DNA of 24,520 nucleotides from an uncultured archaeon (GTDB taxonomy: Archaea; Asgardarchaeota; Lokiarchaeia; Sigyniarchaeales; SOKP01). Every line of letters begins with the position of its first letter. Within the stretch, counting starts at the first letter, position 1. Below, piece by piece: positions 364 through 21,776 of this stretch. Both the position numbers and the translations under genes were made by a program. The notes beneath the pieces were generated by a model. The model searched no databases and had not been told where the DNA came from. It saw nothing but the letters and a program-made list of their open reading frames with translations. Where the stretch lies: positions 1-24,520 of the forward strand of contig CAYUTF010000048.1 in assembly GCA_964447495.1 (NCBI GenBank), in the 5' to 3' direction.

Positions 364-1284
364 ATGGGAGAATCCGATCAACCAGAACAAATTAATTGCG
401 AAAATTCGGAAGTTATTAAAGAAGAGATTAATCTTCAGTATCATTGGTATATGCCGGCTTTCTTTATCATATTTTTTGGTTCGATCCTCATCCCTGCACT
501 ACTTTTAATGCTCTATGTCGAATTCTTTTATCTTCCATATTTTTTAAACTCATCAAACATTATCTCCGTATTTACCCATATCGAACCGATACTTGCGTCG
601 ATTTTTATGCCCTTCCTTCTAATTATTTGCTATTTAATCCATATCTTTTTTGTAGGACTCATTACTCGATGGTTTTGGAGCATTACAGAAAAGAGATCAC
701 CTTCTAAAGATGGAATTATTCCCAGAAATATCCCGAGTAAAACATTGAATTACTATCATATTCGTAGTTTCATGATCAAATATCCAAAAAACGCCGTTCT
801 TCGAGGACCTTTCCCTTGGTTGATAAATTGGCTCTACAATTTTGTGGGATCAAATAAAATTGGAAAAGGAAGTACGATTGAAGAGCAATTTGGCGCAGAT
901 AAGTATGTAGAAATTGGCAAGAATGCATACATTGGCGTGAATTCGGGGTTTAGTAGTCATGCTGTTGAAGGTATATTTGGGAATATTAGTTATGCCAAAA
1001 TTAAGCTCGGAGATAACGTAACAACCGCAGCACTTAATTGTCTTGCTCCAGGAGTAGAAATAAAGGATAATTCTGCCCTATTTCCTCTCGCTGGAGCCAC
1101 TAAATACAGCATACTTAAAGATAATAATTACTATTTTGGCGTTCCTTTAAGAAAAATCTTTACGAAAAAAGTGCTTTCGTATTTACAAATAGATGAAACT
1201 GATTTGAAGAAAGCTGAAGCACTCTATAAAAAAACCGAAATAGATAGCAAAATCAAAAACCAGAGAATAAACAGCCATGAGTGA
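364..1284 (+). CDS. Module 1 subunit A: 2-TM membrane protein with left-handed beta-helix (hexapeptide) acyltransferase-like domain; Pls/NRPS terminal-domain-like repeat
   Basis: Two hydrophobic helices, then KIGKGSTI..VEIGKNAYIGVNS..SSHAVEG..IKLGDNVT..YYFGVP. Paralogue of 3622-4485 and of the N-half of 12975-14840. ATG 364 preferred to TTG 358. Confidence 0.75.
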   Translation: MGESDQPEQINCENSEVIKEEINLQYHWYMPAFFIIFFGSILIPALLLMLYVEFFYLPYFLNSSNIISVFTHIEPILASIFMPFLLIICYLIHIFFVGLITRWFWSITEKRSPSKDGIIPRNIPSKTLNYYHIRSFMIKYPKNAVLRGPFPWLINWLYNFVGSNKIGKGSTIEEQFGADKYVEIGKNAYIGVNSGFSSHAVEGIFGNISYAKIKLGDNVTTAALNCLAPGVEIKDNSALFPLAGATKYSILKDNNYYFGVPLRKIFTKKVLSYLQIDETDLKKAEALYKKTEIDSKIKNQRINSHE

Positions 1285-2188
1285 ACAAGACCGTAAAAAA
1301 GATGAGAATCCATCTGAAATCAGTCAAACTGAAAAGGATTACGCCATAAATTTCGTTACTAGCAGTGCGATTAATCGAATCAGTTTGAAATTTCTTTTAT
1401 TATATGTTCCTATTTTATGGTTCAGTGGTTATATCGCATTGGCTATATTCTTTGATATGTCAAAGATTATAAATAATTGGTTGATAACCGCTTTGTTAAT
1501 TCCGGTATGGTTATTTTTGTTATATTTTATTTTTGTATTTGGATTATCAATTTTTACGAAAGCAATTCTTTTGATAATAAATATGATTCATAAACCAAGG
1601 GAAGGAGTATTCAAAGCAGAAGAAGGTAATCAAGATTTTGAATTCTGGCGATTAAGAACGGAGTTGAAAAAGCTGGCTCTCTGGTTTATGAATAAAGGAC
1701 CGTTGCCATGGATTGTCCCTTGGGGATTTCGGTGGTTTGGGGTGCGTATTGACTTTTCCAGTCATCTCCAAGATGCATGGGTCGATGTAGATTTTATAGA
1801 CTTTGGGAGGAAGGTTACCGTCGGCCAAGGAGCAGTAGTTATGAGCTCGATGATTGTGGGTCGATATTTAATTATTAAAAAGATTATTATCGATGATTAT
1901 GCTGTTATTGGAGGAGTTTCCAATATATCCCCTGGAACCGTAATTAAAAAAGATACGGTCATCGGAGCCTTTTCAAGTACCACTTTTAATCAGATTTTAG
2001 AAGAAGGATGGATCTATTTCGGTATTCCCGCCATTAAGTTAAAACCAAACAAATACGCAGAGGAAAGAAGAGATAAGATAATTAAAAGGGATGTAGATAA
2101 ACAAATAAAATATGAAGTACCCCATGAAGTTAATATTGATGAAGATAAGAAAGAGTTAATTAATAATCATAATAAAAAGGAATGTTAA
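1277..2188 (+). CDS. Module 1 subunit B: 2-TM + LbH acyltransferase-like protein
   Basis: Two TM segments, HKPREG..DFEFW, FGRKVTVGQGAVV, IDDYAVIGG..ISPGTVI, WIYFGIPA. Overlaps the upstream stop by 8 nt (ATGAGTGA). Confidence 0.75.
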   Translation: MSEQDRKKDENPSEISQTEKDYAINFVTSSAINRISLKFLLLYVPILWFSGYIALAIFFDMSKIINNWLITALLIPVWLFLLYFIFVFGLSIFTKAILLIINMIHKPREGVFKAEEGNQDFEFWRLRTELKKLALWFMNKGPLPWIVPWGFRWFGVRIDFSSHLQDAWVDVDFIDFGRKVTVGQGAVVMSSMIVGRYLIIKKIIIDDYAVIGGVSNISPGTVIKKDTVIGAFSSTTFNQILEEGWIYFGIPAIKLKPNKYAEERRDKIIKRDVDKQIKYEVPHEVNIDEDKKELINNHNKKEC

Positions 2189-2191
2189 CCT

Positions 2192-3034
2192 ATGTCAGTA
2201 CCCTCAAGCTTGCAAGCAGGACCCTTTGTTTCATTGGTGTTAGTAAAAAAAAGGTATCTAGTTTTCTATATCTATCTCATTTGGGTAAGCCTTTTTAGTG
2301 TTCAATTGGAGTTTTGGTGGTATTGGAATTTGTTATATGGATGGAAATTTATCCACTTTATCATATTTCTTCCACTTCTTGTTTTAGTTATGTATATTAC
2401 TCTAGTTTTCGTATCACTTCTTAACGCAAAACTATTATTAGTCATAACAAACATAATTCATAGGCCTCGAGAGGGTACTTTTCTCAGAGATCCATCAGAT
2501 AAAGACTTTCGCTATTGGAGTATTCGAAATGTCATTAAACGATGGCCTATATGGTTAACACACAAGTTTCCTTTTCCCTTCTTAGACAATATATGTTTCA
2601 AACTCTTCGATGTGAAGACTAAGTTTTCTAATTCTTTATTTGAAGGTTGGGTTGATACTGAATTCATTGATTTTGGAAAAGAAGTAGTTATTGGACAGGG
2701 GAGCATAATCCAATCGTCTGTCATTATAGGAAACTTGTTTATCATACGAAAGACAATTATTGAAGATAATGTGAGAATAGGGGCACACACAGTTGTTATG
2801 CCGGGTACGCAAATAAAAAAAAATGCAATATTAGCCGCAAGTTCAATTACAACAATAGGACAAGAACTTGAAGAGGGTTGGATATATTTAGGAGTTCCTG
2901 CCAGTAAATTCAAAAGGAATGTATTTTTTGAAGATAATTTAGAAGAAATTATTGAAAAACAACTACAAGATGTAGAAAAAATCCATCAAGATTATGAGAA
3001 ATTATATACAAAAAGACATGATAAAAAAATTTAA
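2192..3034 (+). CDS. Module 1 subunit C: 2-TM + LbH acyltransferase-like protein
   Basis: MSVP..GPF N-terminus, two TM segments, HKFPFPFLDNICFK, IEDNVRIGAHTVVMPGTQI, WIYLGVPA. Confidence 0.75.
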   Translation: MSVPSSLQAGPFVSLVLVKKRYLVFYIYLIWVSLFSVQLEFWWYWNLLYGWKFIHFIIFLPLLVLVMYITLVFVSLLNAKLLLVITNIIHRPREGTFLRDPSDKDFRYWSIRNVIKRWPIWLTHKFPFPFLDNICFKLFDVKTKFSNSLFEGWVDTEFIDFGKEVVIGQGSIIQSSVIIGNLFIIRKTIIEDNVRIGAHTVVMPGTQIKKNAILAASSITTIGQELEEGWIYLGVPASKFKRNVFFEDNLEEIIEKQLQDVEKIHQDYEKLYTKRHDKKI

Positions 3035-3061
3035 TTTATGAAAATATATGGAGAAATGAAA

Positions 3062-3532
3062 ATGAAGGTTGTAAAACTTCCTAATATGAGTGAACATGAG
3101 ATTAAGGAGGCATTGGGTAACAATCATTTATGCCGCATTGCGTTTATTGATGAGGATTATCCCTATATTTCACCTTTTCAATATGTTTATCTGGACCATA
3201 CTCTTTATTTCCATTTTACAGATTATGGAAAGAAAATGCAAATCATCAAAGAGAATAGAAATATTTGCGTTTCTATTGAGTCTTTTGAACGAGATTTAAA
3301 CAAATATTATTTCATATCCTTGCAAGGAGAGCTAGTCCTAATTGAAGATGTTAAAGTAAAAGAACAGGTATTAATGAAATTGGTTGCGAATGCAAAAGAA
3401 CAATTTTCGAAGAATTTTCTTACTGCTCATGGTTTTAGTAAAGATCGAGGGTGGGACGCATTTGAATTGAAAAATCAATTAATTTATAAGTTTGTACAGA
3501 AAAAAGAAGCGATTGGCTTGAAATCTCTATAA
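3062..3532 (+). CDS. Pyridoxamine 5'-phosphate oxidase-like / NimA-family flavin-binding protein
   Basis: LCRIAF..YPYISPFQYVY..LYFH..GKKMQII..N.NICVS pattern of split-barrel flavoproteins. GGAG at 3050-3053 favours ATG 3062; alternative starts at 3038 and 3056. Confidence 0.8.
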   Translation: MKVVKLPNMSEHEIKEALGNNHLCRIAFIDEDYPYISPFQYVYLDHTLYFHFTDYGKKMQIIKENRNICVSIESFERDLNKYYFISLQGELVLIEDVKVKEQVLMKLVANAKEQFSKNFLTAHGFSKDRGWDAFELKNQLIYKFVQKKEAIGLKSL

Positions 3533-3621
3533 TTTTTCGCTTTTGGACCAAACAGTATAGTATTTATGATTTATAAACTAATATTTTTTAAATTACACAT
3601 GTATATGCTAATTTGATAAAG

Positions 3622-4485
3622 ATGCAAATGAGTGAAGGAACTACGACTAATTTAGATAATATGGTAATTAAGCAAGAAGTAAACCTCCAGTACCATTGGT
3701 ATCTCCTCTGTTTTTTTATCATCTATCTAACCTCATTCTTAATACCGGGAGCAATTTTCATGATTTATATTTGGTGTTACTTTTTACCAAATTTTCTTGA
3801 AATAGGAAATATTCTCTTTATTTTCAGAAATTTGAATCCTCTATTATCCTTACTCTTAATGCCCGGAATTATCTTGTTATGTTATGTAATTCATCTTTTT
3901 TTTATAGCATTTACCACACGTTGGATGTGGGCAATAACAGAAAAGAGATCACCGAGTAAGGATGGAATTGTCCCCCGAAACATTCCAAGTAAGACGATTA
4001 ACTATTATCATATACGCTCATTTATGATTAAATACGCTAAATATGTTTTCAGTAAAGGGTTATTTCCTTGGCTTTTGAATTGGCTTTACAACTATGTTGG
4101 AACTAATAAGATAGGAAAAGGAACGACTATTGAAGAGGAGGTCGGAGCGGATAAATACGTAGAGATTGGAGAAGGAACCTATATTGGAGTAAATTCAATT
4201 ATAACTTCTCATGTAGTTGAAGGGATCTTCGGTAATATATCTTATTTCAAAGTTAAATTAGGAGATAATATCACTTGTGGAGGTATAAATGGATTTGGAC
4301 CAGGAAGTGTTTGCAAAGATGATGCATATCTCCTTCCTTTTGCTACTGCAGGAAAATATCATAATTTAAAGGGAGATAACTATTATTTTGGCATTCCAAT
4401 ACGAAAAATTTTCCCAAAAAAAGTTATGGATTATTTAAAGTTAAGTCCAAGAGATTTAGAAAAAAATAAAAGAAAAAAGGAATAA
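3622..4485 (+). CDS. Module 2 subunit A: 2-TM + LbH acyltransferase-like protein
   Basis: Shares PSKDGI.PRNIPSKT.NYYHIRSFMIKY and SH.VEGIFGNISY with module 1 A. Start ATG 3622 or 3628 (track gives TTG 3613). Confidence 0.75.
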   Translation: MQMSEGTTTNLDNMVIKQEVNLQYHWYLLCFFIIYLTSFLIPGAIFMIYIWCYFLPNFLEIGNILFIFRNLNPLLSLLLMPGIILLCYVIHLFFIAFTTRWMWAITEKRSPSKDGIVPRNIPSKTINYYHIRSFMIKYAKYVFSKGLFPWLLNWLYNYVGTNKIGKGTTIEEEVGADKYVEIGEGTYIGVNSIITSHVVEGIFGNISYFKVKLGDNITCGGINGFGPGSVCKDDAYLLPFATAGKYHNLKGDNYYFGIPIRKIFPKKVMDYLKLSPRDLEKNKRKKE

Positions 4486-4488
4486 AAG

Positions 4489-5379
4489 GTGGAGCTAGAA
4501 AAACAAATAGATGATAAATCGGACTTTTCTATTGATTTTATAACAAGTAGTGAGATTAGTCGCATCAGCTTGAAGTTTTTGTTAATTTATATCCCAATAT
4601 TTTGGCTTGGGGCTTTACCTGTCCTAATTTATGCCGTAGCGTATATCCCAAGATTAGAATATTGGATCGGTTCGCTATTTTATTTGCCTGTTTCGATATT
4701 CTTTATGATCTGTCTATTTATTATTGGATGTGTGTTTTTTTCTAAATTAATTCTTATTCTGTTGAATTTAATACATAAGCCAAAAGAAGGAATATTCAGA
4801 GCGAAAAAGGGAAATAAGGATTTTGAATATTGGTGTTTAAGGATTCAACTCAAAAAGATATCCATTTGGCTCTTAAATAATTGTCCTCTGCCCTGGCTTG
4901 ATATTTTAGCTTTTCGATGGTTTGGAGTTAAAGTAGATTTCTCCAGTCACATGATTGATGCGTGGGTGGATACAGAGTTTATAAATTTCGGAAGAAAGGT
5001 AATGGTTGGTCAGGGAGCAGTAGTTATGAGCTCTATGATATTAGGCAAGTACTTAATCATTAAAAGAATCTATTTGGAAGACTATACGGTTGTCGGTGGT
5101 CAATCAACAGTGTCTCCCGGAACGATTATTGGACAAGATACCGTTCTTGGCGCTTTATCAACTACAACATTTAATCAGGTTTTGGAGCAGAGCTGGCTTT
5201 ACTTTGGGTTTCCCGCTAAAAAACTCAAGGTAAATAAATATGCTGAAATAAAGCCAACCACAATTAAGAGAATTGACGTAGATAAATCCCTAAAGTATGA
5301 TGTTGCATATGATATAAATATAGATGAAGATAAGAAAGAACTGCTTAATAATAATCATAAAAAGTTAAAAGAGGATTAA
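4489..5379 (+). CDS. Module 2 subunit B: 2-TM + LbH acyltransferase-like protein
   Basis: IDFITSSEISRISLKFL N-terminal motif, FGRKVMVGQGAVVMSS, NIDEDKK C-terminal motif. GTG start is in frame with upstream subunit A. Confidence 0.75.
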   Translation: MELEKQIDDKSDFSIDFITSSEISRISLKFLLIYIPIFWLGALPVLIYAVAYIPRLEYWIGSLFYLPVSIFFMICLFIIGCVFFSKLILILLNLIHKPKEGIFRAKKGNKDFEYWCLRIQLKKISIWLLNNCPLPWLDILAFRWFGVKVDFSSHMIDAWVDTEFINFGRKVMVGQGAVVMSSMILGKYLIIKRIYLEDYTVVGGQSTVSPGTIIGQDTVLGALSTTTFNQVLEQSWLYFGFPAKKLKVNKYAEIKPTTIKRIDVDKSLKYDVAYDINIDEDKKELLNNNHKKLKED

Positions 5380-5383
5380 AATC

Positions 5384-6301
5384 ATGTCAGTTCCTTGTTC
5401 ATTACGTGTAGGGCCGTTTACTAGTAACATTTTGCTCAAGAAACGTTATGTTATGTTATATATCGCAATTTTTTGGTTTAGCCTTATCCCGGTGTTGATA
5501 GAATTCTGGGCTTATTGGCAGCTCTTATGGAGTGATACTAATGCGTTGCTATTTTATCTGTTTTTGCCGTTATATGGATTTTTAGCATATATTTCAACTG
5601 TATTTAGCGCATTGATAGTTGCAAAAATATTTTTAGAGGTTGCAAATGCAATTCATAAACCTCAAGAAGGAATTTTTGAGCGTAATAGCTCCGATAAAGA
5701 TTATAGATATTGGAATATTAGGTTAATTATTAAGAAATATCCTGCGTGGATATCTCATAGATTTCCTTTCCCCTTTTTGGATAATATATGTTTTAAGCTT
5801 TTTGGAGTAAAAACAAAGTTTTCGAACTCTTTGTTTGCTGGATGGGTAGATACCGAATTTATCACGTTCGGAAAAAATGTGGTAGTAGGGCAAGCAAGTA
5901 TTGTACAGTCATCAGTAATAATTGGGAATCTATTAATTATTAAAAAAGTTGCTATTAAAGATAATGTAAGAATAGGAGCTCATTCAGTAGTGATGCCTGG
6001 AACTATAATTGAGGAAAATTGCGTGCTAGCAGCCCATTCATTAACCACAGTTGAACAACATCTAGAAAAGAATTGGATTTATGTAGGAATACCTGCAGAA
6101 AAGTATAAAGTAAATAGATTTTATCAAGATAATATCGAAGAGCTTATTGATTTAAATGTTGATATCGAAGGCATAAGAGAAAAGTATGAAAAGTTATATG
6201 AAAGACAAGAACGAACCCAAGTTAGCTATTTACAACGTAAGAAGATAAAAGAAGAGAAAGTAAAGCACGAAAAGCAGAGATGGGAAAAGGTTACAAGCTA
6301 A
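5384..6301 (+). CDS. Module 2 subunit C: 2-TM + LbH acyltransferase-like protein
   Basis: MSVP..GPF, HRFPFPFLDNICFKLFGVKTKFSNSLF.GWVDTEFI, WIYVGIPA. Confidence 0.75.
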   Translation: MSVPCSLRVGPFTSNILLKKRYVMLYIAIFWFSLIPVLIEFWAYWQLLWSDTNALLFYLFLPLYGFLAYISTVFSALIVAKIFLEVANAIHKPQEGIFERNSSDKDYRYWNIRLIIKKYPAWISHRFPFPFLDNICFKLFGVKTKFSNSLFAGWVDTEFITFGKNVVVGQASIVQSSVIIGNLLIIKKVAIKDNVRIGAHSVVMPGTIIEENCVLAAHSLTTVEQHLEKNWIYVGIPAEKYKVNRFYQDNIEELIDLNVDIEGIREKYEKLYERQERTQVSYLQRKKIKEEKVKHEKQRWEKVTS

Positions 6302-6307
6302 AATATT

Positions 6308-7210
6308 ATGAAAATCGGATATCCTTGTATTAATCTTTCTATGGATTGCCGAAGTAGTAGAACATTTCGGTTGAAAAATTATTCTGAATCAAAATTAAAA
6401 GAAACTATTCAAGGAAATTTAATATGTTTGCAAAAGATTCTTGAATACAACAGAGATAACAAATTTCTTTTCTTTAGGATCACTTCTGATTTAATACCTT
6501 TTGCATCTCATCCTGTTATGAACTTTGATTGGCAAACTAATTTTAAAAACGAGTTTAGAAAAATAGGTTCTTTTATAAAAAGGCATGAGATGAGAATCAC
6601 TATGCATCCGGGGCAATACACCGTGCTAAATTCAACTAATAATTCTGTTCTTCAAAAAAGCATAAAAGATTTGGAATATCATGTGGATGTCCTCGACCTT
6701 ATGGGATTAGATAGAACCGCTAAAGTACAGATTCATGTAGGAGGTGTTTATGGAGACAAAGCGAAAAGTTTACAGCGATTTATCAATAGATATACTAAAC
6801 TTGCAGAGAAAATCAAGAATAGATTGATAATTGAAAATGACGATAAAAGTTATAATTTGAGAGATTGCTTAAGAATTCATGAGGATACAAATATTCCCAT
6901 AGTTTTTGATGTCTACCATTATGAATGTTTGAATGCAGGAGAAACTCTGAATGAAGCATTTAATGAATTTGTACCAACATGGTTAAAGGAGGACGGATTA
7001 CCAATTGTACATTATAGCTCTGAACATCCTACGAAAGGAAAACCACGTCATACTGAACACATAGATATTAATCATTTCAGAACTTTTCTAAGTAAAATAA
7101 GTAAATTTGAATTTGATATTATGTTAGAAATAAAAGATAAAGAACAAAGTGCGTTTAAAGCTATAAAATTTCTTGAAAATGATATACGTTTTTTATCTAA
7201 TAGGATTTAA
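6308..7210 (+). CDS. uvsE: UV DNA damage endonuclease UvsE (UVDE)
   Basis: MKIGYPCIN, FFRITSDLIPFASHP, RITMHPGQYTVLNS, IHVGGVYGDK, IENDDKSY, IPIVFDVYH, VHYS, DIMLEIKDKE. Confidence 0.95.
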   Translation: MKIGYPCINLSMDCRSSRTFRLKNYSESKLKETIQGNLICLQKILEYNRDNKFLFFRITSDLIPFASHPVMNFDWQTNFKNEFRKIGSFIKRHEMRITMHPGQYTVLNSTNNSVLQKSIKDLEYHVDVLDLMGLDRTAKVQIHVGGVYGDKAKSLQRFINRYTKLAEKIKNRLIIENDDKSYNLRDCLRIHEDTNIPIVFDVYHYECLNAGETLNEAFNEFVPTWLKEDGLPIVHYSSEHPTKGKPRHTEHIDINHFRTFLSKISKFEFDIMLEIKDKEQSAFKAIKFLENDIRFLSNRI

Positions 7211-7356
7211 TTTGGAAGATTAAATGAATGATACATAACATTTCAACAACTCTTCTCAAATACACATTCAAATTGAAATAAATAATATGAGGTAAAATTA
7301 TCTTAATTCCCATTTAATTTGAAAAATAAATATAAGATAGCCTTCTTAGATATATT

Positions 7357-7725
7357 ATGATTAATCAATCTTTTGATAAGTTGCTCCAATTTCTTGTGAA
7401 AATACCTTCGATTACTGGATCGATAGGGACTGGTGTTGAAGAAGGTTTATGGTGGGTGAAATTTAGGATAGATATACAAAATCCCTTAGCTTGGAATGTT
7501 GTTCAGGAGTTGGGATACGTGCTTAATTATTTATCCTTAGAACAGAAATTACCAACTGTTTTCATGCCTACATCTCCACCTCCATATATGAATGGAGGAC
7601 CTCATGAGTTTTTATCGTGGGTGATTGAGTCCAAATCTGCGAATTTTACGCCTGATGATGCTGTAGATTGGTTAAAAAGTCGATTACCTGACCCTGTAAA
7701 TAAAATTAAAAAATGGCAAAATTAG
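7357..7725 (+). CDS. Conserved hypothetical protein (122 aa)
   Basis: Clean ORF with Trp/Pro-rich motifs WWVKF.IDI..PLAW.VVQELG and PTSPPPYMNGGP..FLSWVIE; function not recognised. Confidence 0.7.
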   Translation: MINQSFDKLLQFLVKIPSITGSIGTGVEEGLWWVKFRIDIQNPLAWNVVQELGYVLNYLSLEQKLPTVFMPTSPPPYMNGGPHEFLSWVIESKSANFTPDDAVDWLKSRLPDPVNKIKKWQN

Positions 7726-7760
7726 GAATATACATATAAGTTATTGAACAAAAATAGATT

Positions 7761-7829
7761 AATTTGGTAAAGTGTGGCTAACTTAATCGAATGAAATTCT
7801 ATCATTTAAAATCTTATTCGGACCAAATC
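7761..7829 (-). other. RNA stem-loop in the 3' UTR of the TGA-containing peroxiredoxin-like gene (candidate non-canonical SECIS, or terminator between convergent genes)
   Basis: On the minus strand, CGAAUAAGAUUUUA-AAUGA-UAGAAUUUCAUUCG (7788-7820) pairs at 13 of 14 positions including 2 G-U, with an AA-starting loop. An outer helix GAUUUGGU/ACCAAAUU is possible (7822-7829 with 7761-7768). Confidence 0.35.
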
Positions 7830-7833
7830 GGAG

Positions 7834-8307
7834 TTAATTATTTAATTTTTCAAGTATTTTGAATAATTCTTCATTCTCAGGGATATCATCCATTGAATCG
7901 CTATAATAGGCATATTTTATAATTCCTTGTTTATCGATTATAAGAAGTGCCGGCATCCTTCCCATTTTTAATGGCTTTACTTCTTGTTTTAACAATTTAT
8001 TAACCTCTTTTTTATCGTCATAATATATGGGATACGTTTCTGCAAATGTAGATTCAAAGTTCTTGGCATTTTCAAGGTTATCTGGTAAGATTGCGTAAAT
8101 CTCGGTATTATAACTTTTAAATTTTACATACGCATCTCGAATTTTCTTTGCATGGGCTTTAGCATAGGGTCAACTTTTACTCCTGAAAAGTATAATTATA
8201 GCATTTTTCTTCCCTTTGAACTCACGAATATTTGTTGTAGCGCCTTGAGAATTCGCTAATGAGAATTCTGAAATTTGTGTTCCTACTAGATTAAATTTAT
8301 CTTTCAT
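7834..8307 (-). CDS. Peroxiredoxin-like (AhpC/TSA, thioredoxin-fold) protein with in-frame TGA at codon 46; putative selenoprotein
   Basis: Manual translation: MKDKFNLVGTQISEFSLANSQGATTNIREFKGKKNAIIILFRSKS-U-PYAKAHAKKIRDAYVKFKSYNTEIYAILPDNLENAKNFESTFAETYPIYYDDKKEVNKLLKQEVKPLKMGRMPALLIIDKQGIIKYAYYSDSMDDIPENEELFKILEKLNN* (157 aa). TGA 8170-8172 aligns with the Cys of the R-x-x-W-C-P-x-C motif. Upstream GTGAG RBS-like sequence. Confidence 0.85.
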
Positions 8308-8427
8308 GAGATTATCTCACTTATTTTACTTATAATTTAAACAAATAACTAATAAATACTATTATGTTATAATTCATTTAGTCCTCAATTCGGCAAAGAA
8401 AAATATTAAAAATAATAAGGTGAGAAT

Positions 8428-8829
8428 ATGGTACTTGTAATTAATTGGTTAGCAGTTATAGTTGTTGGATTAATCTATTTTGCCATCCATTTCTTCTGGT
8501 ATTTTCCTTTTGCTTTTGGAAACTTATGGCTAAAATTGGTAGGAAAAGAAAGTGAACCCAAATCAAAAATAATACGAGATACTATTATTATGATCCCAAC
8601 AAGCATAGTTACCGTACTTTTTATAGAAATTATGTTAGATTTAACGGGAATCATTGATATTGTAGGCGCATTGCTATTAACTTTCATATTATGGGTAGGG
8701 TTTGTAGCTACAATTGCTATTAATCAAAACAACTTCAATGATAGAGGCGTGAAATTATTTCTCTTGGAATATGGCTTTTATCTTATAGGATTCTTACTTG
8801 CGGGAGTAATATTAGTTGTGTGGGTCTAA
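8428..8829 (+). CDS. DUF1761-family membrane protein
   Basis: INWLAVIV..FFWY.P..FGNLW N-terminal signature, four TM helices, AGGTGAG RBS upstream. Confidence 0.8.
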   Translation: MVLVINWLAVIVVGLIYFAIHFFWYFPFAFGNLWLKLVGKESEPKSKIIRDTIIMIPTSIVTVLFIEIMLDLTGIIDIVGALLLTFILWVGFVATIAINQNNFNDRGVKLFLLEYGFYLIGFLLAGVILVVWV

Positions 8830-8861
8830 AAAAATTAACAATCTTTTTCTTTCTATTTTTT

Positions 8862-10496
8862 TTAACCTTGTATAACATATAAAGGCCATTTTTTCAATAT
8901 ACCTTTTGGAGTTTGTCCAGTTCTCACTTGCTTTAATATATTTTCTCGTGTTTCTAAAAAATCAACAGGTGAACCATCAATTAGTTCAATATCAATCTTC
9001 TTATTCTCAAAAATTTGATGAAAATCATGCAAACTTTCATTTTCAATTATAATTTTTACGATATCTAACTCATTTGTACAGCTTTTACTATATGGTAGAA
9101 TTAATTTATATCTATCATGGCTATGTTTTAGATTCACCAATACCATCGAATCTGTATCATAATTACATTTCTCTTTTAAAAAGAATAAAAGCCTCCTTGG
9201 TTCCATTATAATAAAATCTCTAAATGTAAAATAATCACCTGCAAATAGCTCATAATACTTAGGTGTTTTTATAAAGTTTGAAATTTTAATTGGATAGTTT
9301 AATTTAAAACTTGATCTTAATATTTTCCCTTCAATTAAAGGCAGTCCATTCTTAGTATCTAAAACTGAAATAACATCACCTAAATCTATATTAATGAGGA
9401 AATTATTATCGTCCATTCTGGATACATAAAGTTTTCCATATCCTTTTGAGATTTGAAATATTGGAATCATTTTATTTTTTGCTTCTAATGCAGCTAGAGA
9501 AAGCGGAAATACAAACATATCATTAAAGTGAGTATTAATATAGTCTTCTTTTGATATACTCGCAGCAAAAGGACCAACTTCAGAAATTACATATAGATTA
9601 GTAAATTTCTCTTTCTTCTTTTCCCAGTTCATGAAAGATCGTATCATTTCCCAGTTTTTTTCAGAGAGAGAACTAATACTAAAAATTATTGTCGCTTTCG
9701 ACAACTTTCTTGAAAGTTCTTTTTGAATTATTCGAGAACCTTCTTCCAAACCTTTTGTTTTAATGATTGAAATTAGTTTTTCTAAAGCTGGTTCCAGTAC
9801 TTTCGGTAATTTTTGAAGGGATCTTGCAATTCCTTCCTTTAATTTATCTCGATCTGCCCATCCAAGTATAGTCAATGCTGGAGCGGAGATACATGCTACA
9901 TTTTCTAGTTGAAGCATCTTTGCCAGAATCTCTAAGTTTTTCGAATATTTATATTCATAAAAAAAATACGATTCTGGTTTAATAATTGAAAGCATTACTC
10001 TTTGGGAGAATTCTGAGGAATATAATGAGATATATTTTTGCTCATTATAATTTTGAAGTCCATCATGTTTGATTCGGGAAGGAACAAAAATAATAGCTGA
10101 ATTATCTTTAGTTAATCCACTTGATTCGAAAATAGCTTGCATTCCAGGAGCCCAATTTCGTCTAACAACCTCTTTTGACATAAAAAACCATTTAAGTGCT
10201 GATAAATTAGTATTTGTTGTTCCAGAGGTATGACATATAATTGGAGTATATGGTTTGTTATATCTTTTAAGAAAATCCTCTACATTGAGAGAAAAACTAT
10301 TTGGATTTGTTTTTTCTCTGCTAATTTTACTGTTTAAGTCGCTTACTGAATTCAATCCTGAAAGCTTTAAACTTACTTCTTCAAATTCTTGAGGAGAAGA
10401 AATGTTTAACCACCTTTTCCAATCAATTGCTGAGATGTCTGCAAAAGTATTATTTAGTATGTCTTGAACGTTCTTATCAAAATCATAGATGACCAT
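8862..10496 (-). CDS. Divergent adenylate-forming enzyme (ANL superfamily; GH3 acyl-acid-amido synthetase / PaaK-like)
   Basis: P-loop-like CHTSGTT, NLYVISEVG (Y-x-x-S-E), IDLGDVI, GKILRS and C-terminal GQTPK, in the canonical ANL order. AGGAG RBS upstream. Confidence 0.6.
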   Translation of the reverse strand: MVIYDFDKNVQDILNNTFADISAIDWKRWLNISSPQEFEEVSLKLSGLNSVSDLNSKISREKTNPNSFSLNVEDFLKRYNKPYTPIICHTSGTTNTNLSALKWFFMSKEVVRRNWAPGMQAIFESSGLTKDNSAIIFVPSRIKHDGLQNYNEQKYISLYSSEFSQRVMLSIIKPESYFFYEYKYSKNLEILAKMLQLENVACISAPALTILGWADRDKLKEGIARSLQKLPKVLEPALEKLISIIKTKGLEEGSRIIQKELSRKLSKATIIFSISSLSEKNWEMIRSFMNWEKKKEKFTNLYVISEVGPFAASISKEDYINTHFNDMFVFPLSLAALEAKNKMIPIFQISKGYGKLYVSRMDDNNFLINIDLGDVISVLDTKNGLPLIEGKILRSSFKLNYPIKISNFIKTPKYYELFAGDYFTFRDFIIMEPRRLLFFLKEKCNYDTDSMVLVNLKHSHDRYKLILPYSKSCTNELDIVKIIIENESLHDFHQIFENKKIDIELIDGSPVDFLETRENILKQVRTGQTPKGILKKWPLYVIQG

Positions 10497-10601
10497 ATAA
10501 TCTCCTAATTCAAAGTTGTATATGTTATATTGATTTTATTATCCTATTTATTAATTAAGTTTATACTTGGAAAGGAAAAGAAAAAAAGAGTTTTTTACTT
10601 A

Positions 10602-11144
10602 TTAAAAATGGTGTATCACAATTCCATACTCACCCGTTATCCCCTCTTGAAATAGTGGCAAATGCGGGGGAAAATATGTAAACAAGATAAATAATAATCC
10701 TAGTATTATCAATCCAAGAATTGAAATAATTGAAATCTTATTACTAAACTTTTTCAATGTAAGAATTTTATAACTTACTAGCTGCGCTATAACAATTGAA
10801 AGAATGAAGCTAATAATGTCTAGAAATAAAAAGTCTTCTCCAAGAATCGCTGTATAAGTGTAAAAGAAGGTTATTATAAAAACTACGATTACTAAAGATG
10901 CGATTAATTTGGCAAAAGCTATATTATTGACCTCTTTTTTGATGAATTTATATTCAATTAATGTAAATAGCATTAATGGCCAATACCCTAATTTGAGATG
11001 TTCCCAAACACTCTCATTTACTGCCGCAATAGCACCAACGGGTGGAAAATATCCTGTAAGTTCAAACAGAAAATGTAAAAATGAACCTAATAAACTTATG
11101 AAAATCATTCCAACTATTTCCCAGATAAGAATTTTTTTATTCAT
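10602..11144 (-). CDS. DUF6512-family membrane protein
   Basis: LGSFLHFLFE..AVNESVWEHLKL signature, about five TM helices, TYFPPHLPLF near the C-terminus, GGTGA RBS. Confidence 0.75.
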   Translation of the reverse strand: MNKKILIWEIVGMIFISLLGSFLHFLFELTGYFPPVGAIAAVNESVWEHLKLGYWPLMLFTLIEYKFIKKEVNNIAFAKLIASLVIVVFIITFFYTYTAILGEDFLFLDIISFILSIVIAQLVSYKILTLKKFSNKISIISILGLIILGLLFILFTYFPPHLPLFQEGITGEYGIVIHHF

Positions 11145-11363
11145 TTAATCACCGAAAAATTGGGTTACTTATCTTATTAAAATGAACTAAGAAATATATT
11201 CAAGGTGTTTAGGTATTATAAATACTCCTAGAAAAAAACCTATTAATCATTTGAGAGTCAATTTAACTTTTTATATTTTCAAACTAATTTTAAACGTTAT
11301 ACTTTTCTATGCACATTAATATCTATTTTAAAAGTATAAAAAAAATAGAAGATTATCCTTAAT

Positions 11364-12371
11364 ATGATAGCGGCACTATTCAATGGAAAAGATTTAACAA
11401 TTCAAGAAGTGGAAATCCCTAAATTAACGAAAAATCAGGTGTTAATTAAATTAAAAGCGGTAGGACTATGTGGTACAGATTTAGCTATTATTGAAGGGCA
11501 TCTACCGACTCCAACTCCAATTATAATAGGACATGAACTTGCTGGCGAAATTGTTGATGTGGGAGATGATGTAGATAAATCGTGGCTAGGAAAAAGAGTA
11601 GTCTCTGAAATAAATAGTAATATTGATTTTAGTTGTTATTATTGTAAGCAACATATTTTTACACAATGCATTTCGAGAAAAGCTTTAGGAATTGATATTA
11701 ATGGAGCACTTGCTGAATATATTGCGGTTGAAGCATACCTTATCCACGAGATACCAACCTCTATTTCTTATAGTGAGGCAACTTTTATCGAACCGTTAGC
11801 AGCAGCATATCAAACCTTTGAAATGATGCCTATAGATGAAGGTGACAAAACTGTAGCGATTTTTGGTCTTGGTAAATTAGGTTTATTAATAATGCAAATC
11901 GCACTACATAATAATTTGAAAGTTATTGCTGTTGATGGATCTGAAGAAAAACTAGCATTAGCAAAAAAGTTCGGAGCATCTAGAGTAATCAATCGTCTGA
12001 AAGAGAATAGCATCTCTTATATGATACAGGAATATACTGAGGGATTAGGTGCAGATATTGTTATTGACACTTCGGGCAATCCAGATGCATTAAGGGAGAT
12101 TGTCTCTTCATGCAGAACACGGGGGAAAATTCATATAAAAAGTACCCACGGATTTAGCACTCCAATCAATCTAACCGATTTAGTGGTAAGAGAAATTACC
12201 ATATACACAAGTAGATGTGGACCATTTGAAAAAGCTATTGAAGGATTAAAATCTAAAGAAATTTCCGTAAAAGAATTAATTTTTAAGGAATTTAGTTTGC
12301 GCCAAATCAAAGATGCATTCGATAGCTATCGGAAAAATCGAAACGTTATTAAAATCATTATCAAAATTTGA
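11364..12371 (+). CDS. Zinc-dependent medium-chain alcohol dehydrogenase (threonine/sorbitol dehydrogenase-like MDR)
   Basis: GLCGTD, GHE, D-x2-C-x2-C-x7-C structural Zn loop, EPLAAA, GLGKLG Rossmann motif, SRCGPF. Confidence 0.9.
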   Translation: MIAALFNGKDLTIQEVEIPKLTKNQVLIKLKAVGLCGTDLAIIEGHLPTPTPIIIGHELAGEIVDVGDDVDKSWLGKRVVSEINSNIDFSCYYCKQHIFTQCISRKALGIDINGALAEYIAVEAYLIHEIPTSISYSEATFIEPLAAAYQTFEMMPIDEGDKTVAIFGLGKLGLLIMQIALHNNLKVIAVDGSEEKLALAKKFGASRVINRLKENSISYMIQEYTEGLGADIVIDTSGNPDALREIVSSCRTRGKIHIKSTHGFSTPINLTDLVVREITIYTSRCGPFEKAIEGLKSKEISVKELIFKEFSLRQIKDAFDSYRKNRNVIKIIIKI

Positions 12372-12382
12372 CATTACTTGAA

Positions 12383-12775
12383 TTATAGTTGAATGTTAAA
12401 TTCATCACGTAAAAAACGTCTTAATGATGCACAAATCGATTTTAATTGAATAGGGTTTGTATAAAAGAGTTTTGGATGCGGACATTCTTCATCAAAGACA
12501 CATTTTTTTCGCAGTGGGTCATAGATTAAGGGATAAAACCGACATCCTTGAGGACGATTTCTATATATGTCGCATAATTTTGAAGTCATATTAAAAAAAA
12601 TGCAATGACCATCGATATTTTTTAATTGATTTAACCCTTCTGCGTTTTTGAAAGCAATATCATCTCTATTAGCATAGCGATTATTATGTTTAAGAATTAA
12701 GCTTAAATCATTTTCCGATAAAATCATTTCTGTCGTAATACAACATTTTCCGCAAGACGTACATAACGCATTCAT
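12383..12775 (-). CDS. YkgJ-family CxxCxxCC cysteine-cluster protein
   Basis: CTSCGKCC ... CIFF ... CDIY..RPQGCRFYP ... CP. ATG 12775 follows a GGTGG RBS; the track start is GTG 12787. Confidence 0.85.
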   Translation of the reverse strand: MNALCTSCGKCCITTEMILSENDLSLILKHNNRYANRDDIAFKNAEGLNQLKNIDGHCIFFNMTSKLCDIYRNRPQGCRFYPLIYDPLRKKCVFDEECPHPKLFYTNPIQLKSICASLRRFLRDEFNIQL

Positions 12776-12974
12776 AAAATATCCCACCTAAATTAAAGTT
12801 TCAATTGTATATGTATCAAAAAAATAATATCATCTAATGTCAATATAAGTTTAAAAGAAAAAAAACATATCTATAAAAATAAATGTAGGTTTTTTGTGGA
12901 AATTTCAAAATATATATTTAACCTCTAGAGAAATTTTATCAATAAAATGGAAAAAAATAACTTAATTGATATTT

Positions 12975-14840
12975 ATGAGCAAAGAAGGTATTGCATATGA
13001 AGAACCTGCTATAGTTAACCCACCTAAAGATATCATTAGGGAAGATATAAATATGCAATATTCCCTATATATTACCATCTTTATTTTGATATATTACGGG
13101 TCTTGGATACTTCCGGGATTCATCTTCTTTATTTATATAAATGAATTTTTTTTGAGCAATTTTTTAGATGTGGGCAGTTTCTTCTCACTTTTCACAGAAT
13201 TAAACCCGTTAATAGCGTTAATAACCTTTCCATTAGTATTGATAGGTTGCTATTTAATTCGGCTTCTTTCAGTTGGAATAACAACAAAGATTTTTTGGAG
13301 AATAACTGAAAAAATCTCTCCTTCCAAATCAGGCATAATTCCTCGTAACATTCGAAGTAAAGCTGCAAATTATTATCATTTACGAAGTTTCATGATAAAA
13401 TACGGAAAGAATATTTTTACCAAGGGTGCATTCCCTTGGCTATCTAATTGGTTTTTTAAATTCGTCGGTTCTTCAAAAATTGGAAAAGGAACAACGATTG
13501 AAGAATCGGTGGGCTCTGACAAGTTTATTGACATTGGAAAAAATTGTTATATCGGCGTAAATAGTACATTAGCCAGTCATTTAGTCCAAGGAATATTTGG
13601 AAATATCTCCTATTTTGAAATAAAAGTGGGAGATAACGTGACCACTGCTGGGATGAATCAACTTGGTCCAGGGTGTGAGATTCATGATAACTCGTATTTA
13701 TTACCATTAGCATCCACAAGTAAGCATAGCATTTTAAAAGGAGGGCATAACTATTACTTTGGGATTCCCCTGCGTAAAATCTTTAAAAAGAAAATTATGC
13801 AATACTTGGGAATTACAAAAAAGGATATTGAAAGGAATGAAAATATTGAGCAAGCGATAAAAGAGCTGAAAGAAAGGAAAAAGAAAAAGATTGAGCCAGA
13901 GGAACAAAGCGAGACAGAAGATGATTTAGAGGATACAGAAGATACAGAAGAAGTATCGGAAGAGGGGGAAGTTAATGAAGAATTAAAAGAAGAAGAACTT
14001 AATATTGACTTTACAACCAGTAGTGCGATTAGTAGGGTGAATCTAAAGTTTTTAGCGGTATATCTCCCTATTTTCTGGTTAGCAGGATTATTGATTTCAA
14101 TTTATTGGTACGAATATACAAAAGAAGGTATTATGCTATCGACTCTTTTATTTTTACCCATAAGTATTCTATTTATGATCTATATTTTCATCTTAGGATG
14201 CCTTCTGTTTAGTAAATTAATCCTTATTCTTGTAAATTTGATTCATAAACCAAAAGAAGGAATATTTTTAGCGGAAATAAGGGATACGGATTATGAGTTT
14301 TGGATGTTGAGAACTGCGATTAGAAAGATAACACTATGGCTGTTAAGGAACTCTCCTTTAACTTGGTTAGATATGATCGCTTTTAAAGCTCTTGGATTGG
14401 AAATGGATGCGGGAAGTCACCTCAATGATGCATGGTGTGATGCTGAATTCGTTAAGATTGGTCGTAAAGTGTTAGTTGGACAGGGTGCTACTGTAATGTC
14501 ATCAATGGTAATAGGAAAATATTTAATAATTAAGAAGGTTATTTTTGATGATTATTCCATGGTCGGGGGGCATACTACTATTGCACCAGGGACAATTATT
14601 GGACATGATGGAGTAATAGGAGCAATAAGTTCAACATCGTATTGTCAAGTGTTAAAAGATAATTGGATTTATTTTGGATTTCCCGCAATTGCCCTAAAAG
14701 AAAATAAATATGCGGAAGAGCGGAGGGATCTCATCGTCAAAAGGGATGTGGATGGTGAAGAAAAGTTTGAATTAGATTACGATGTTAATATTGATGAAGA
14801 TAAGAAAAAACTAATAAGGCTCAAGGAGGATAAGGAATAA
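12975..14840 (+). CDS. Module 3 A+B fusion: two (2-TM + LbH) repeats joined by a basic/acidic linker
   Basis: N-half matches subunit A (IPRNI.SK..NYYH.RSFMIKY, ASHLVQGIFGNISY). C-half matches subunit B (IDFTTSSAISRVNLKFL, VGQGATVMSS, VNIDEDKK). ATG 12975 preferred to TTG 12966. Confidence 0.8.
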   Translation: MSKEGIAYEEPAIVNPPKDIIREDINMQYSLYITIFILIYYGSWILPGFIFFIYINEFFLSNFLDVGSFFSLFTELNPLIALITFPLVLIGCYLIRLLSVGITTKIFWRITEKISPSKSGIIPRNIRSKAANYYHLRSFMIKYGKNIFTKGAFPWLSNWFFKFVGSSKIGKGTTIEESVGSDKFIDIGKNCYIGVNSTLASHLVQGIFGNISYFEIKVGDNVTTAGMNQLGPGCEIHDNSYLLPLASTSKHSILKGGHNYYFGIPLRKIFKKKIMQYLGITKKDIERNENIEQAIKELKERKKKKIEPEEQSETEDDLEDTEDTEEVSEEGEVNEELKEEELNIDFTTSSAISRVNLKFLAVYLPIFWLAGLLISIYWYEYTKEGIMLSTLLFLPISILFMIYIFILGCLLFSKLILILVNLIHKPKEGIFLAEIRDTDYEFWMLRTAIRKITLWLLRNSPLTWLDMIAFKALGLEMDAGSHLNDAWCDAEFVKIGRKVLVGQGATVMSSMVIGKYLIIKKVIFDDYSMVGGHTTIAPGTIIGHDGVIGAISSTSYCQVLKDNWIYFGFPAIALKENKYAEERRDLIVKRDVDGEEKFELDYDVNIDEDKKKLIRLKEDKE

Positions 14841-14841
14841 C

Positions 14842-15792
14842 ATGTCAGTCCCCAACACCATGAAAATTGGACCTTTTGTTCCCACTGTATTAGCAAAGAA
14901 ACGATATTTAATTTTCTATTTTTATACCATATGGGCAAGTATCATTCCTTTAATGCTCGAATTCTGGATCTATTGGCATTTTCTATGGAATTATGACAGA
15001 CCAATTCATTTTTATACGTTCCTTCCGTTATTATTTTTTGGGTTATATATAAGTCTGGTTTTTTCTGCCATTTTTTTTGCCAAAATAGCACTAATTATTG
15101 TGAATGTAATTCATAAACCTAAAGTGGGGGTATTTTTAAGACATCCTGCAGATAAAGACTATAGATACTGGAGTTTAAGAAATACCATTCGAAAATGGCC
15201 ATTTTTGGTCGCACATAAATTTCCTTTTCCCTTCTTAGATAATATATGTTTTAAGGTATTTGGAGTGAAAACAAAGCTAAGAAATTCACTCTTTGAGGGA
15301 TGGGTGGATACAGAATTCATTGAATTTGGAAAGAATGTGGTCGTAGGTCAAGGAGCAATAGTCCAATCCGCGGTAATTATCGGAAATCTCCTCATCATTA
15401 AAAAAACCATTATAGAGGATGATGTTCATATAGGTTCCCATGCAATTATTTCGCCTGGGACTCACATTGGAAAAAGAAGTGTTCTTGCATCAAATTCCGT
15501 TACGATAGTTGATCAACAGCTTGAAGATGATTATATTTATGTGGGAATACCTGCGAAAAAGTATAAGAAAAATTGGTTTTTCGAAGATGGCTTACAAGAT
15601 AAGTTAGGACAAGTAAAAGATATAGAAGAACTCATAAAGAAATATGAGAAAATCTATATTAGACGCTATGATAGTCAGCCCAGTAAAAAGGAACGTAAAG
15701 AACGCAAGAAAGTAAAGAAGGAAGTGGAAAAGAAACGATTTGATCAAGCAGAACAGGAATGGGAAGCAGTTGATGATGGTTTCAATATATAA
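14842..15792 (+). CDS. Module 3 subunit C: 2-TM + LbH acyltransferase-like protein
   Basis: MSVP..GPF, HKFPFPFLDNICFK, GWVDTEFIEFGKNVVVGQG, YIYVGIPA. Starts 1 nt after the fusion gene stop. Confidence 0.75.
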   Translation: MSVPNTMKIGPFVPTVLAKKRYLIFYFYTIWASIIPLMLEFWIYWHFLWNYDRPIHFYTFLPLLFFGLYISLVFSAIFFAKIALIIVNVIHKPKVGVFLRHPADKDYRYWSLRNTIRKWPFLVAHKFPFPFLDNICFKVFGVKTKLRNSLFEGWVDTEFIEFGKNVVVGQGAIVQSAVIIGNLLIIKKTIIEDDVHIGSHAIISPGTHIGKRSVLASNSVTIVDQQLEDDYIYVGIPAKKYKKNWFFEDGLQDKLGQVKDIEELIKKYEKIYIRRYDSQPSKKERKERKKVKKEVEKKRFDQAEQEWEAVDDGFNI

Positions 15793-21766: not shown

Positions 21767-21776
21767 GGTATTGGAT

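Follow-up and report, generated by a model that had tools for sequence, protein, structure and literature searches.

Three split sets of membrane-anchored left-handed beta-helix units in an Asgard archaeon are distant relatives of the Pls/PosA polymerization domain and probably form heterotrimeric acyltransferases

To our knowledge, the polymerization domain of the Pls (epsilon-poly-L-lysine) and PosA (delta-poly-L-ornithine) synthetases is the only membrane-embedded enzyme built on the left-handed beta-helix (LbH) that has been described. According to the available part of PMC10522769, this membrane module is catalytic, and an AlphaFold/RoseTTAFold model of the terminal domain of PosA consists of three pairs of transmembrane (TM) helices under three packed five-turn LbH domains, with two helices and a strand between the TM pair and the LbH of each unit. 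The survey presented there covered, as far as that part goes, only full-length synthetases of 1100-1800 amino acids (aa); archaeal homologues are listed in its Supplementary Table 2 and Supplementary Fig. 18, which may be relevant to full-length forms in archaea. Here we analyse a stretch of 24,520 nucleotides (nt) from an uncultured Asgard archaeon (contig CAYUTF010000048.1, C48 in our numbering; hereafter the window), in which eight open reading frames (ORFs) on the + strand hold nine units of this general kind, belonging to three classes, A, B and C. The host genome is 3.81 Mb long and 98.4% complete. The best explanation, to which we assign a probability of roughly 0.6, is that the window encodes three copies of a three-subunit, membrane-anchored LbH acyltransferase, each made of an A, a B and a C subunit; the reading with the best support is that of a heterotrimer corresponding, in split form, to the terminal domain of Pls. 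A literature search, largely without subscription journals, returned no description of such a split, stand-alone Pls-like system.

The nine units are arranged as three A-B-C triplets. The first consists of A1 (358-1284, 308 aa), a class-A unit with two TM helices, an NYYH linker and an LbH domain, for which the original prediction had taken the ATG at 364 as the start; B1 (1277-2188, 303 aa, class B), whose start overlaps the A1 stop by 8 nt; and C1 (2192-3034, 280 aa, class C), 3 nt past B1. The second triplet contains A2 (3613-4485, 290 aa, class A), B2 (4489-5379, 296 aa, class B, 3 nt past A2) and C2 (5384-6301, 305 aa, class C, 4 nt past B2). In the third, two units are joined in one ORF, a natural class-A/class-B fusion via an acidic linker, A3~B3 (12966-14840, 624 aa), followed after 1 nt by its predicted partner, the class-C unit C3 (14842-15792, 316 aa). 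All these genes are on the + strand, and the gaps within the triplets span -8 to +4 nt.

The paralogy of the units is directly visible in a local BLASTP comparison of the nine. Units of the same class are 49-59% identical, B and C units are 33-42% identical to each other, and A units share 20-28% with B or C; since every pair matches at E <= 1e-7, the repetition reflects homology and not chance. A Kyte-Doolittle scan places two hydrophobic helices within the first ~110 residues of each unit. The loop between TM1 and TM2 carries 0-1 lysine or arginine residues as opposed to 3-6 in the 25 residues past TM2, so that the LbH head is predicted, by the positive-inside rule, to be cytoplasmic. The Pfam Hexapep family (PF00132) matches all eight ORFs, above the gathering score of 27 bits in C1 (39.4), C2 (39.6), C3 (36.7) and A3~B3 (42.4), and below it in A1 (21.8), B1 (19.0), A2 (17.1) and B2 (22.2). 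The alignment of the nine units also has a KPxEG or SPSKxG motif after TM2, a (Y/F)W linker motif that is NYYH in class A, and an LbH end of the form (W/Y)(I/Y)Y(F/L/V)G(I/V/F)P, in which the Y-x-G-x-P end is common to all. In a monomer model of C3, which is of moderate quality (pLDDT 67.4) and was used for the order of secondary-structure elements only, TM helices at 20-48 and 61-90 are followed by a strand (96-99), two helices (105-125 and 130-139) and then the LbH. The original prediction had read the eight ORFs as nine units of two TM helices, linker and LbH, and had quoted PxxG-type, (Y/F)W or NYYH and C-terminal GxP motifs; the unit count is borne out by the BLASTP classes, the hydrophobicity scan, Hexapep and the motifs, all of which are present in the alignment.

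The relation of these units to the Pls/PosA polymerization domain can be followed with TIGR02353, the NCBIfam model of that domain, which spans 695 positions and has a curated cut-off of 423.1 bits. It is the top NCBIfam match for six of the eight ORFs, and some of the alignments begin in the TM region. For instance, residues 39-261 of B1 align to profile positions 9-219 (E 5.1e-8), and the model is also the top match for C1 (E 5.3e-9), B2 (E 2e-9) and C2 (E 3.1e-9). The best score, 48.5 bits in two stretches, belongs to A3~B3; the scores of single units range from 16.9 to 38 bits, A1 being absent from the matches at E <= 1. A profile built from the nine units, searched against a library of 1.84 billion representative proteins, matches 3582 proteins at E <= 1e-3, 661 at E <= 1e-10 and 104 at E <= 1e-30. 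One of these, which we call P0378 (1713 aa), is matched in three stretches at E 1.2e-24; this protein scores 471 bits with TIGR02353, above the cut-off, and 392 bits with the adenylation domain model, and by these sequence scores it is a bona fide nonribosomal peptide synthetase (NRPS) of the Pls/PosA type. In the HMMER alignment its first stretch runs from profile position 20 to 262 against residues 892-1126, taking in both TM helices, the post-TM motif and the G-x-P-A end. For the generic LbH proteins of the host genome, on the other hand, this profile gives no more than 24 and 18 bits. Because the P0378 match spans the TM helices and the generic LbH proteins score low, the likeness of the units to Pls/PosA exceeds that among LbH proteins in general. 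Judged by sequence, the homology of the units to the Pls/PosA polymerization domain is real but remote; they are relatives of the TIGR02353 proteins rather than members of that family. The homology to Pls claimed in the original prediction is thus upheld by an alignment that includes the TM hairpin and does not stop at the generic LbH.

The arrangement of the genes is the main argument for a heterotrimer. We examined 93 loci, 75 of them found via an A~B protein and 18 around C~A genes. Two kinds of covalent fusion occur in them, A~B (114 cases) and C~A (18 cases), with none of any other kind, and the junctions between adjacent genes are B>C 86 times, A>B 43, A>A 14, B>A 8, C>A 4 and A>C 2 times. 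A cyclic order A->B->C->A is directly observed, broken only by tandem copies and two ambiguous calls. A protein labelled Promethearchaeota (P0241, 797 aa; 54.3 bits with TIGR02353) is a natural single chain C~A~B, and a second C~A~B chain, P0242, has a first unit truncated at the N-terminus. The fusions C~A~B, A~B and C~A fit the prediction of one heterotrimer because a cyclic permutation keeps the handedness of a threefold ring. The A~B fusion is a widely conserved form of the A+B pair: among the matches listed, relatives of A3~B3 make up 120 clusters, all of 61-100% identity and 590-646 aa. Orthologues of A~B average 66% column identity and those of C 80%, the latter being 66-85% identical in sequence.

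The numbers of units point in the same direction. The host genome contains 15 units (five A-type and ten B/C-type in our tree): the nine in the window, a C~A fusion plus B on contig C35, two units that form a pair on C24 and, on C118, a single A-type gene. We read these as five sets of three, a reading that assigns the lone A-type gene of C118 to the unlinked pair on C24. The set on C35 (18387-20871; L076) is a cyclically permuted form in which a C~A fusion of 539 aa is followed by B. In relatives, the C~A fusion is directly followed by a further unit in 18 of 18 loci, the next unit being B in 16 and ambiguously C in two. The C24 pair (29263-30876; L077) consists of two divergent units, and the A-type gene of C118 (1213-2010; L078) stands alone; the same split into 2+1 was seen in G144 and G040 as well as in G162 and G089 of the sister family. 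Two complete relatives have 12 units each, 4A:4B:4C, as counted after hand removal of edge-truncated duplicate ORFs. Among the five genomes of the window's own family that were counted in full, each with 12-17 units, the number is a multiple of three in three, the host's case resting on the pairing of unlinked genes. The original prediction that the units always come as A-B-C holds three times over in the window; genome-wide it does not, in view of the C~A and B genes of C35, the C24 pair and the lone A of C118.

A complex model of A3~B3 with C3 agrees with this arrangement. It reached an ipSAE of 0.85 (0.85, 0.86 and 0.85 in the separate runs) vs 0.00 for the best control, in a comparison from which the homotrimers AAA, BBB and CCC were absent. 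In the calibration set, which applies here only roughly since our own alignments were used, 58 of 80 solved complexes reached the score mark, as did two of 110 mismatched pairs. At least 63% of contacts are common to the runs, the pLDDT of the partner is at least 77, and C3 is in contact with the A half (66-302) as well as the B half (344-572), in TM and LbH regions alike. Together with the fusions and the C~A~B chain, the model supports the original prediction of one A, one B and one C forming a membrane-anchored pseudo-trimer, and we regard a 1:1:1 heterotrimer as the most likely state, well supported if not proven.

It is instructive to compare this putative assembly with Pls/PosA. The repeated unit is the same in both, i.e. 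two TM helices, a strand with two helices and an LbH; in both cases three units are modelled as a pseudo-threefold assembly on a six-helix bundle; and the sequence homology spans the TM hairpin as well as the post-TM and C-terminal motifs. The order of elements in the C3 model matches the PosA model in the available part of PMC10522769. There are also clear differences. Firstly, Pls/PosA is a single chain, whereas the Asgard units are split over two or three genes. Secondly, Pls/PosA carries N-terminal adenylation and thiolation (peptidyl carrier protein, PCP) domains, and the eight Asgard ORFs have no AMP-binding or PP-binding match. Thirdly, the acyl donor in the Asgard system is, from the sequence, probably not carrier-bound. 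The mechanism that we propose is as follows. Each subunit would consist of a two-TM hairpin, a short strand with two helices and a cytoplasm-facing LbH; A, B and C would pack on a pseudo-threefold axis to give a six-helix bundle under a head of three LbH domains; the active sites would lie, as they do in other LbH trimers, at the three interfaces between unlike subunits; the thioester donor would be acyl-coenzyme A (acyl-CoA) rather than a carrier-protein thioester; and the acceptor would be in the membrane, or passed through it, such as a lipid, a lipid-linked glycan or a surface polymer.

Among solved structures, no membrane form of the TM-LbH unit was found in the PDB copy searched by sequence and profile. 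The best sequence matches are AntD (3vbi/3vbj), the maltose and galactoside O-acetyltransferases and VCA0836 (E 1.4e-11 with the profile), and the best fold match is likewise to CoA-dependent acyltransferases (E 2e-7). In these soluble enzymes the C-terminal LbH turns align with our units, including the Y-x-G-x-P end, but they are homotrimers that have neither TM hairpin nor linker helices. A heterotrimeric LbH assembly on a membrane complex has a precedent in plant and protist complex I, where paralogous subunits related to gamma-carbonic anhydrases (gamma-CA) and CA-like proteins form a heterotrimer at the membrane, and gamma-CA-like complex I subunits do occur among the PDB sequence and fold matches. 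That heterotrimer is peripheral to a large complex and lacks a TM hairpin of its own, and the likeness is confined to the LbH turns; we see in it an analogy of design, not evidence of relationship.

Several points weigh against the heterotrimeric, Pls-related acyltransferase. All units of the window stay far under the TIGR02353 cut-off (48.5 vs 423.1 bits at best), such sub-threshold matches are unspecific as the same search gives matches in 14 of 14 control genomes, and A1, A2 and P0241 score higher with another LbH family than with TIGR02353. When the nine-unit profile was aligned to P0378 with hhalign, only the LbH part was aligned (the third LbH; 96.7% probability, 111 columns). No catalytic residue is assignable in the nine-unit alignment, which has no invariant histidine, and it is the function, donor, acceptor and product alike, that we infer. 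The locus counts are not independent, because the loci were chosen by an A~B or C~A gene and come from related genomes, and the good score of the complex model may reflect a memory of soluble LbH homotrimers. As to stoichiometry, 40 A~B runs in the 93 loci have no C next to them, one B and one C are preceded by two or three A genes in nine loci, and two genomes carry 17 units each. Finally, unlinked A, B and C genes had been named in the original prediction as speaking against a triplet, and they were found for one conserved set only, in which a lone A-type gene is apart from the two-unit pair. The surplus A or A~B genes suggest modules that confer specificity and can be exchanged on a C or B-C core common to them.

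The question of the donor is best approached from the genome as a whole. LbH transferases take an acyl group off a phosphopantetheine thioester and place it on an amine or a hydroxyl, in sites located between subunits. In the 98.4%-complete host genome we found no match to a PP-binding domain and none to an ACPS-type phosphopantetheinyl transferase (PPTase); as there is neither carrier domain nor PPTase in the genome, an acyl-CoA donor appears likelier than carrier-bound chemistry of the Pls type. The nearest solved folds, those of AntD and the maltose and galactoside O-acetyltransferases, are also CoA-dependent. The genome has 14 AMP-binding ligases, none of them on a unit-carrying contig. 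An ADP-forming acyl-CoA synthetase adjoins the lone A-type gene in three of six genomes (the host, G168 and G162, not G192, G144 or G040), which is a weak lead.

Bacterial relatives without adenylation-thiolation (A-T) domains add to the picture. P0341 (680 aa), P0303 (683 aa) and P0379 (960 aa, with an N-terminal short-chain dehydrogenase/reductase, SDR) are bacterial single-chain proteins with three TM-LbH units, and proteins of this type are matched by the nine-unit profile at E 7e-32 to 1e-24. They share with the Asgard system the three units without adenylation or carrier domains, and they differ from it as single polypeptides that are nearer to TIGR02353 (168-184 bits). In one bacterial locus (L134, 7971-16407) a 690-aa ORF of this kind, also without A-T domains, heads a same-strand run in which it is followed by a GT1-like glycosyltransferase, a GMC oxidoreductase, an SDR, an RmlA-like nucleotidyltransferase and an RmlB-like dehydratase. 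By analogy, this context and the SDR fusion point to acylation of glycoconjugates or lipids by the A-T-less forms, a lead that comes from a single locus. The Pls-like condensation chemistry offered in the original prediction finds no support here, given the genome without PP-binding domain and PPTase, the units under the TIGR02353 cut-off and the bacterial relative in a sugar cluster.

The distribution of the family was studied in a phylum sample of 201 genomes, in which f1 denotes the family of the window and f2 a sister family of the same order. With C3 as query (E <= 1e-15) matches were found in 40 of 40 f1 genomes and three of three f2 genomes, and in none of 157 genomes from 25 other families. 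The strong unit family is thus directly observed to be confined to the GTDB order of the window, where it is present in all 43 genomes sampled. Weaker, single-unit relatives spread beyond the order: the nine-unit profile (E <= 1e-12) matches 75 of the 201 genomes (f1 40/40, f2 3/3, f7 5/43, f8 5/5, f17 4/5, f19 6/6, f20 1/7, f22 10/10), with a best E of 1.6e-24 outside the order vs 1e-50 to 1e-128 inside. In three f19 genomes there are 5-6 matches each, mostly open frames of ~240-325 aa, on different contigs. The three f2 genomes hold five units each, and in the two that were classified (G162 and G089) these are an A gene followed by a gene equally B- and C-like, a pair of the C24 type and a lone A-type gene. 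The labels of the named homologues are Promethearchaeota and, for some, Hod-, Hermod-, Thor- or Odinarchaeota, in keeping with the Asgard host that had been guessed from the DNA. A cluster of Asgard type, A-A-A-B-C, was also seen in L065 (DATKTW010000040.1), a metagenome-assembled genome (MAG) contig labelled Nanopelagicaceae, i.e. actinobacterial; it has the same zinc alcohol dehydrogenase (ZnADH), CxxCxxCC and AlaXM neighbours (AlaXM 73% identical) and is probably mis-binned.

In a tree of the units, which is midpoint-rooted, has long branches and is to be taken as tentative, the units of the Asgard order group together (support 94/90); within them class A forms a single clade (99/98), and class B branches from among C-like lineages. 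The Asgard units stand apart from those of P0378 and of the three bacterial single-chain proteins. As they group together, A, B and C do not correspond one-to-one to units 1, 2 and 3 of Pls. From these sequences the likely history leads from a single unit to an A + B/C pair and on to the A-B-C triplet, with fusions and en-bloc duplication; tentatively, the Asgard triplication would be independent of the bacterial one.

The genes between the triplets encode Pyridox_ox_2, UvdE, DUF1761, a 544-aa ORF, DUF6512, a zinc alcohol dehydrogenase and a CxxCxxCC protein (PF03692). The 544-aa ORF (8862-10496, - strand) has no match at E <= 0.01 in Pfam (PF00501 and PF03321 included) or NCBIfam. Its AF2 model (pLDDT 83.3, pTM 0.80) matches PaaK-type ligases (E 2.4e-11), the acyl-acid amido synthetase GH3.15 (3.4e-8) and the amide-bond synthetase McbA (3.2e-7) in Foldseek, with a probability of 1.00 but TM-scores of only 0.33-0.47; the modelled fold is the two-domain one of the adenylate-forming ANL superfamily. 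In its Atlas neighbour cluster 24% of the members carry GH3 and 14% AMP-binding, which serves as a lead only. Orthologues are Asgard-specific, 44-70% identical in related loci, and lie 124-4799 nt from a unit gene in 36 of 75 such loci. By genome, this query finds the ORF in 25 of 40 f1, none of three f2 and three of six f19 genomes, while the unit family is present in 40/40 and 3/3 of f1 and f2. This phyletic mismatch rules out the ORF as an obligate missing adenylation domain, and we keep it as a candidate, non-obligate partner. The statement in the original prediction that A-T domains are absent is correct for the eight ORFs by Pfam, with the proviso that a divergent ANL-fold ORF sits between triplets 2 and 3.

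The tightest non-unit neighbour is the CxxCxxCC gene (12383-12787, - strand), divergent from A3~B3. It is found in 68 of 75 related loci, in 62 of which its distance to a unit gene is at most 200 nt, and it mostly sits between a surplus A~B gene and the principal A~B + C pair. ZnADH is present in 61 of the 75 loci, and AlaXM, LRR and GDH are likewise syntenic; as these unrelated genes are syntenic too, we set the neighbourhood aside as a guide to function. MFS_2 and an acyl-CoA dehydrogenase were considered as partners of the C~A + B set and rejected, each lying beside it in only seven of 18 loci. Elsewhere in the window, an otherwise empty gap of 700 nt contains ORFs of 53 and 45 aa (7834-7995 and 8170-8307, both on the - strand), which by eye resemble C- and N-terminal pieces of a thioredoxin-fold protein of the peroxiredoxin/AhpC-TSA type, possibly a broken gene. 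At 20996-22541 (- strand) a gene of 256 aa, by eye of the MinD/CooC-like P-loop kind, forms a pair with a cysteine-rich ORF of 254 aa; in related loci the two are found again, with identities of 53-76% and 45-57%. Searches of the window found no tRNA and matched no Rfam family.

Other explanations have to be weighed against the three-subunit acyltransferase. One, which we consider rather unlikely, sees in the system a relative of the Pls polymerase that works combinatorially, needs no carrier and is specific to one Asgard order: interchangeable A or A~B proteins would dock on a shared C or B-C core, each combination would transfer a different activated acyl or aminoacyl group supplied by CoA or by the neighbouring ANL-fold enzyme, and the product would be threaded through the six-helix bundle. 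If this were true, the system would make secreted or surface amide- or ester-linked polymers, or lipid modifications, that are not known from other archaea. In a related idea, ABC would be a carrier-free, Pls-like polymerase whose amide-linked product is a poly-amino acid or polyamide; the 544-aa ANL-fold enzyme would supply the monomer in trans, as an adenylate or CoA thioester, and the chain would be exported through the six-helix bundle. The homology to the Pls/PosA polymerization domain speaks for it, as do the PaaK-type, GH3.15 and McbA matches of the modelled ANL fold, the P-loop-like and other ANL-like motifs that are invariant in the orthologues of this ORF, and its presence in 36 of 75 related loci. 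We think both the polymer synthesis and its feeding and export improbable, since the phyletic patterns of the ORF and the unit family differ, several of the genomes without the ORF being 98-100% complete; the ORF is on the opposite strand; neither thiolation domain nor PPTase was found in the host genome; and the similar synteny of AlaXM, LRR and GDH makes the neighbourhood weak evidence.

It could also be supposed that A, B and C form independent homotrimers, i.e. separate membrane acetyltransferases with differing substrates, adjacent through tandem duplication only. Solved LbH acyltransferases are mostly homotrimers, and it is such enzymes that our sequence searches match; moreover, the single-unit relatives in another Asgard family are unlinked and on different contigs, there are surplus A or A~B genes without a C of their own, and one A-type gene is unlinked. 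We nevertheless give this supposition a poor chance, because the covalent A~B, C~A and C~A~B proteins cannot form homotrimers of a single class, the cyclic order is unbroken except by tandem copies, start and stop codons overlap or nearly touch, three of five f1 genomes have multiples of three units, and the complex model sets C3 against both A and B. Lastly, a non-catalytic structural or regulatory membrane module, for which the gamma-CA-like matches, the complex I precedent and the lack of an assignable catalytic residue could be invoked, is highly improbable, as the best sequence and fold matches are CoA-dependent acyltransferases and not gamma-CAs, the closest homologous module, that of Pls/PosA, is catalytic according to the available part of PMC10522769, and all three classes are strongly conserved, which is compatible with catalysis if no proof of it.

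If the split, three-subunit acyltransferase is real, it would make both the architecture of this type of module and the location of catalysis in it directly testable. A natural split version offers subunits that can be expressed separately and three unlike interfaces that can be mutated singly, and the natural A~B, C~A and C~A~B fusions fix the handedness of the assembly. Even if the proteins were only O-acetyltransferases of sugars or lipids, this would still be a rare documented case of an obligate heterotrimeric LbH enzyme. For the organisms themselves, the unit family is present in every sampled genome of one Asgard order, where it is expanded and highly conserved, and it probably acts on the membrane or the cell surface, the seat of the distinctive biology of these archaea.

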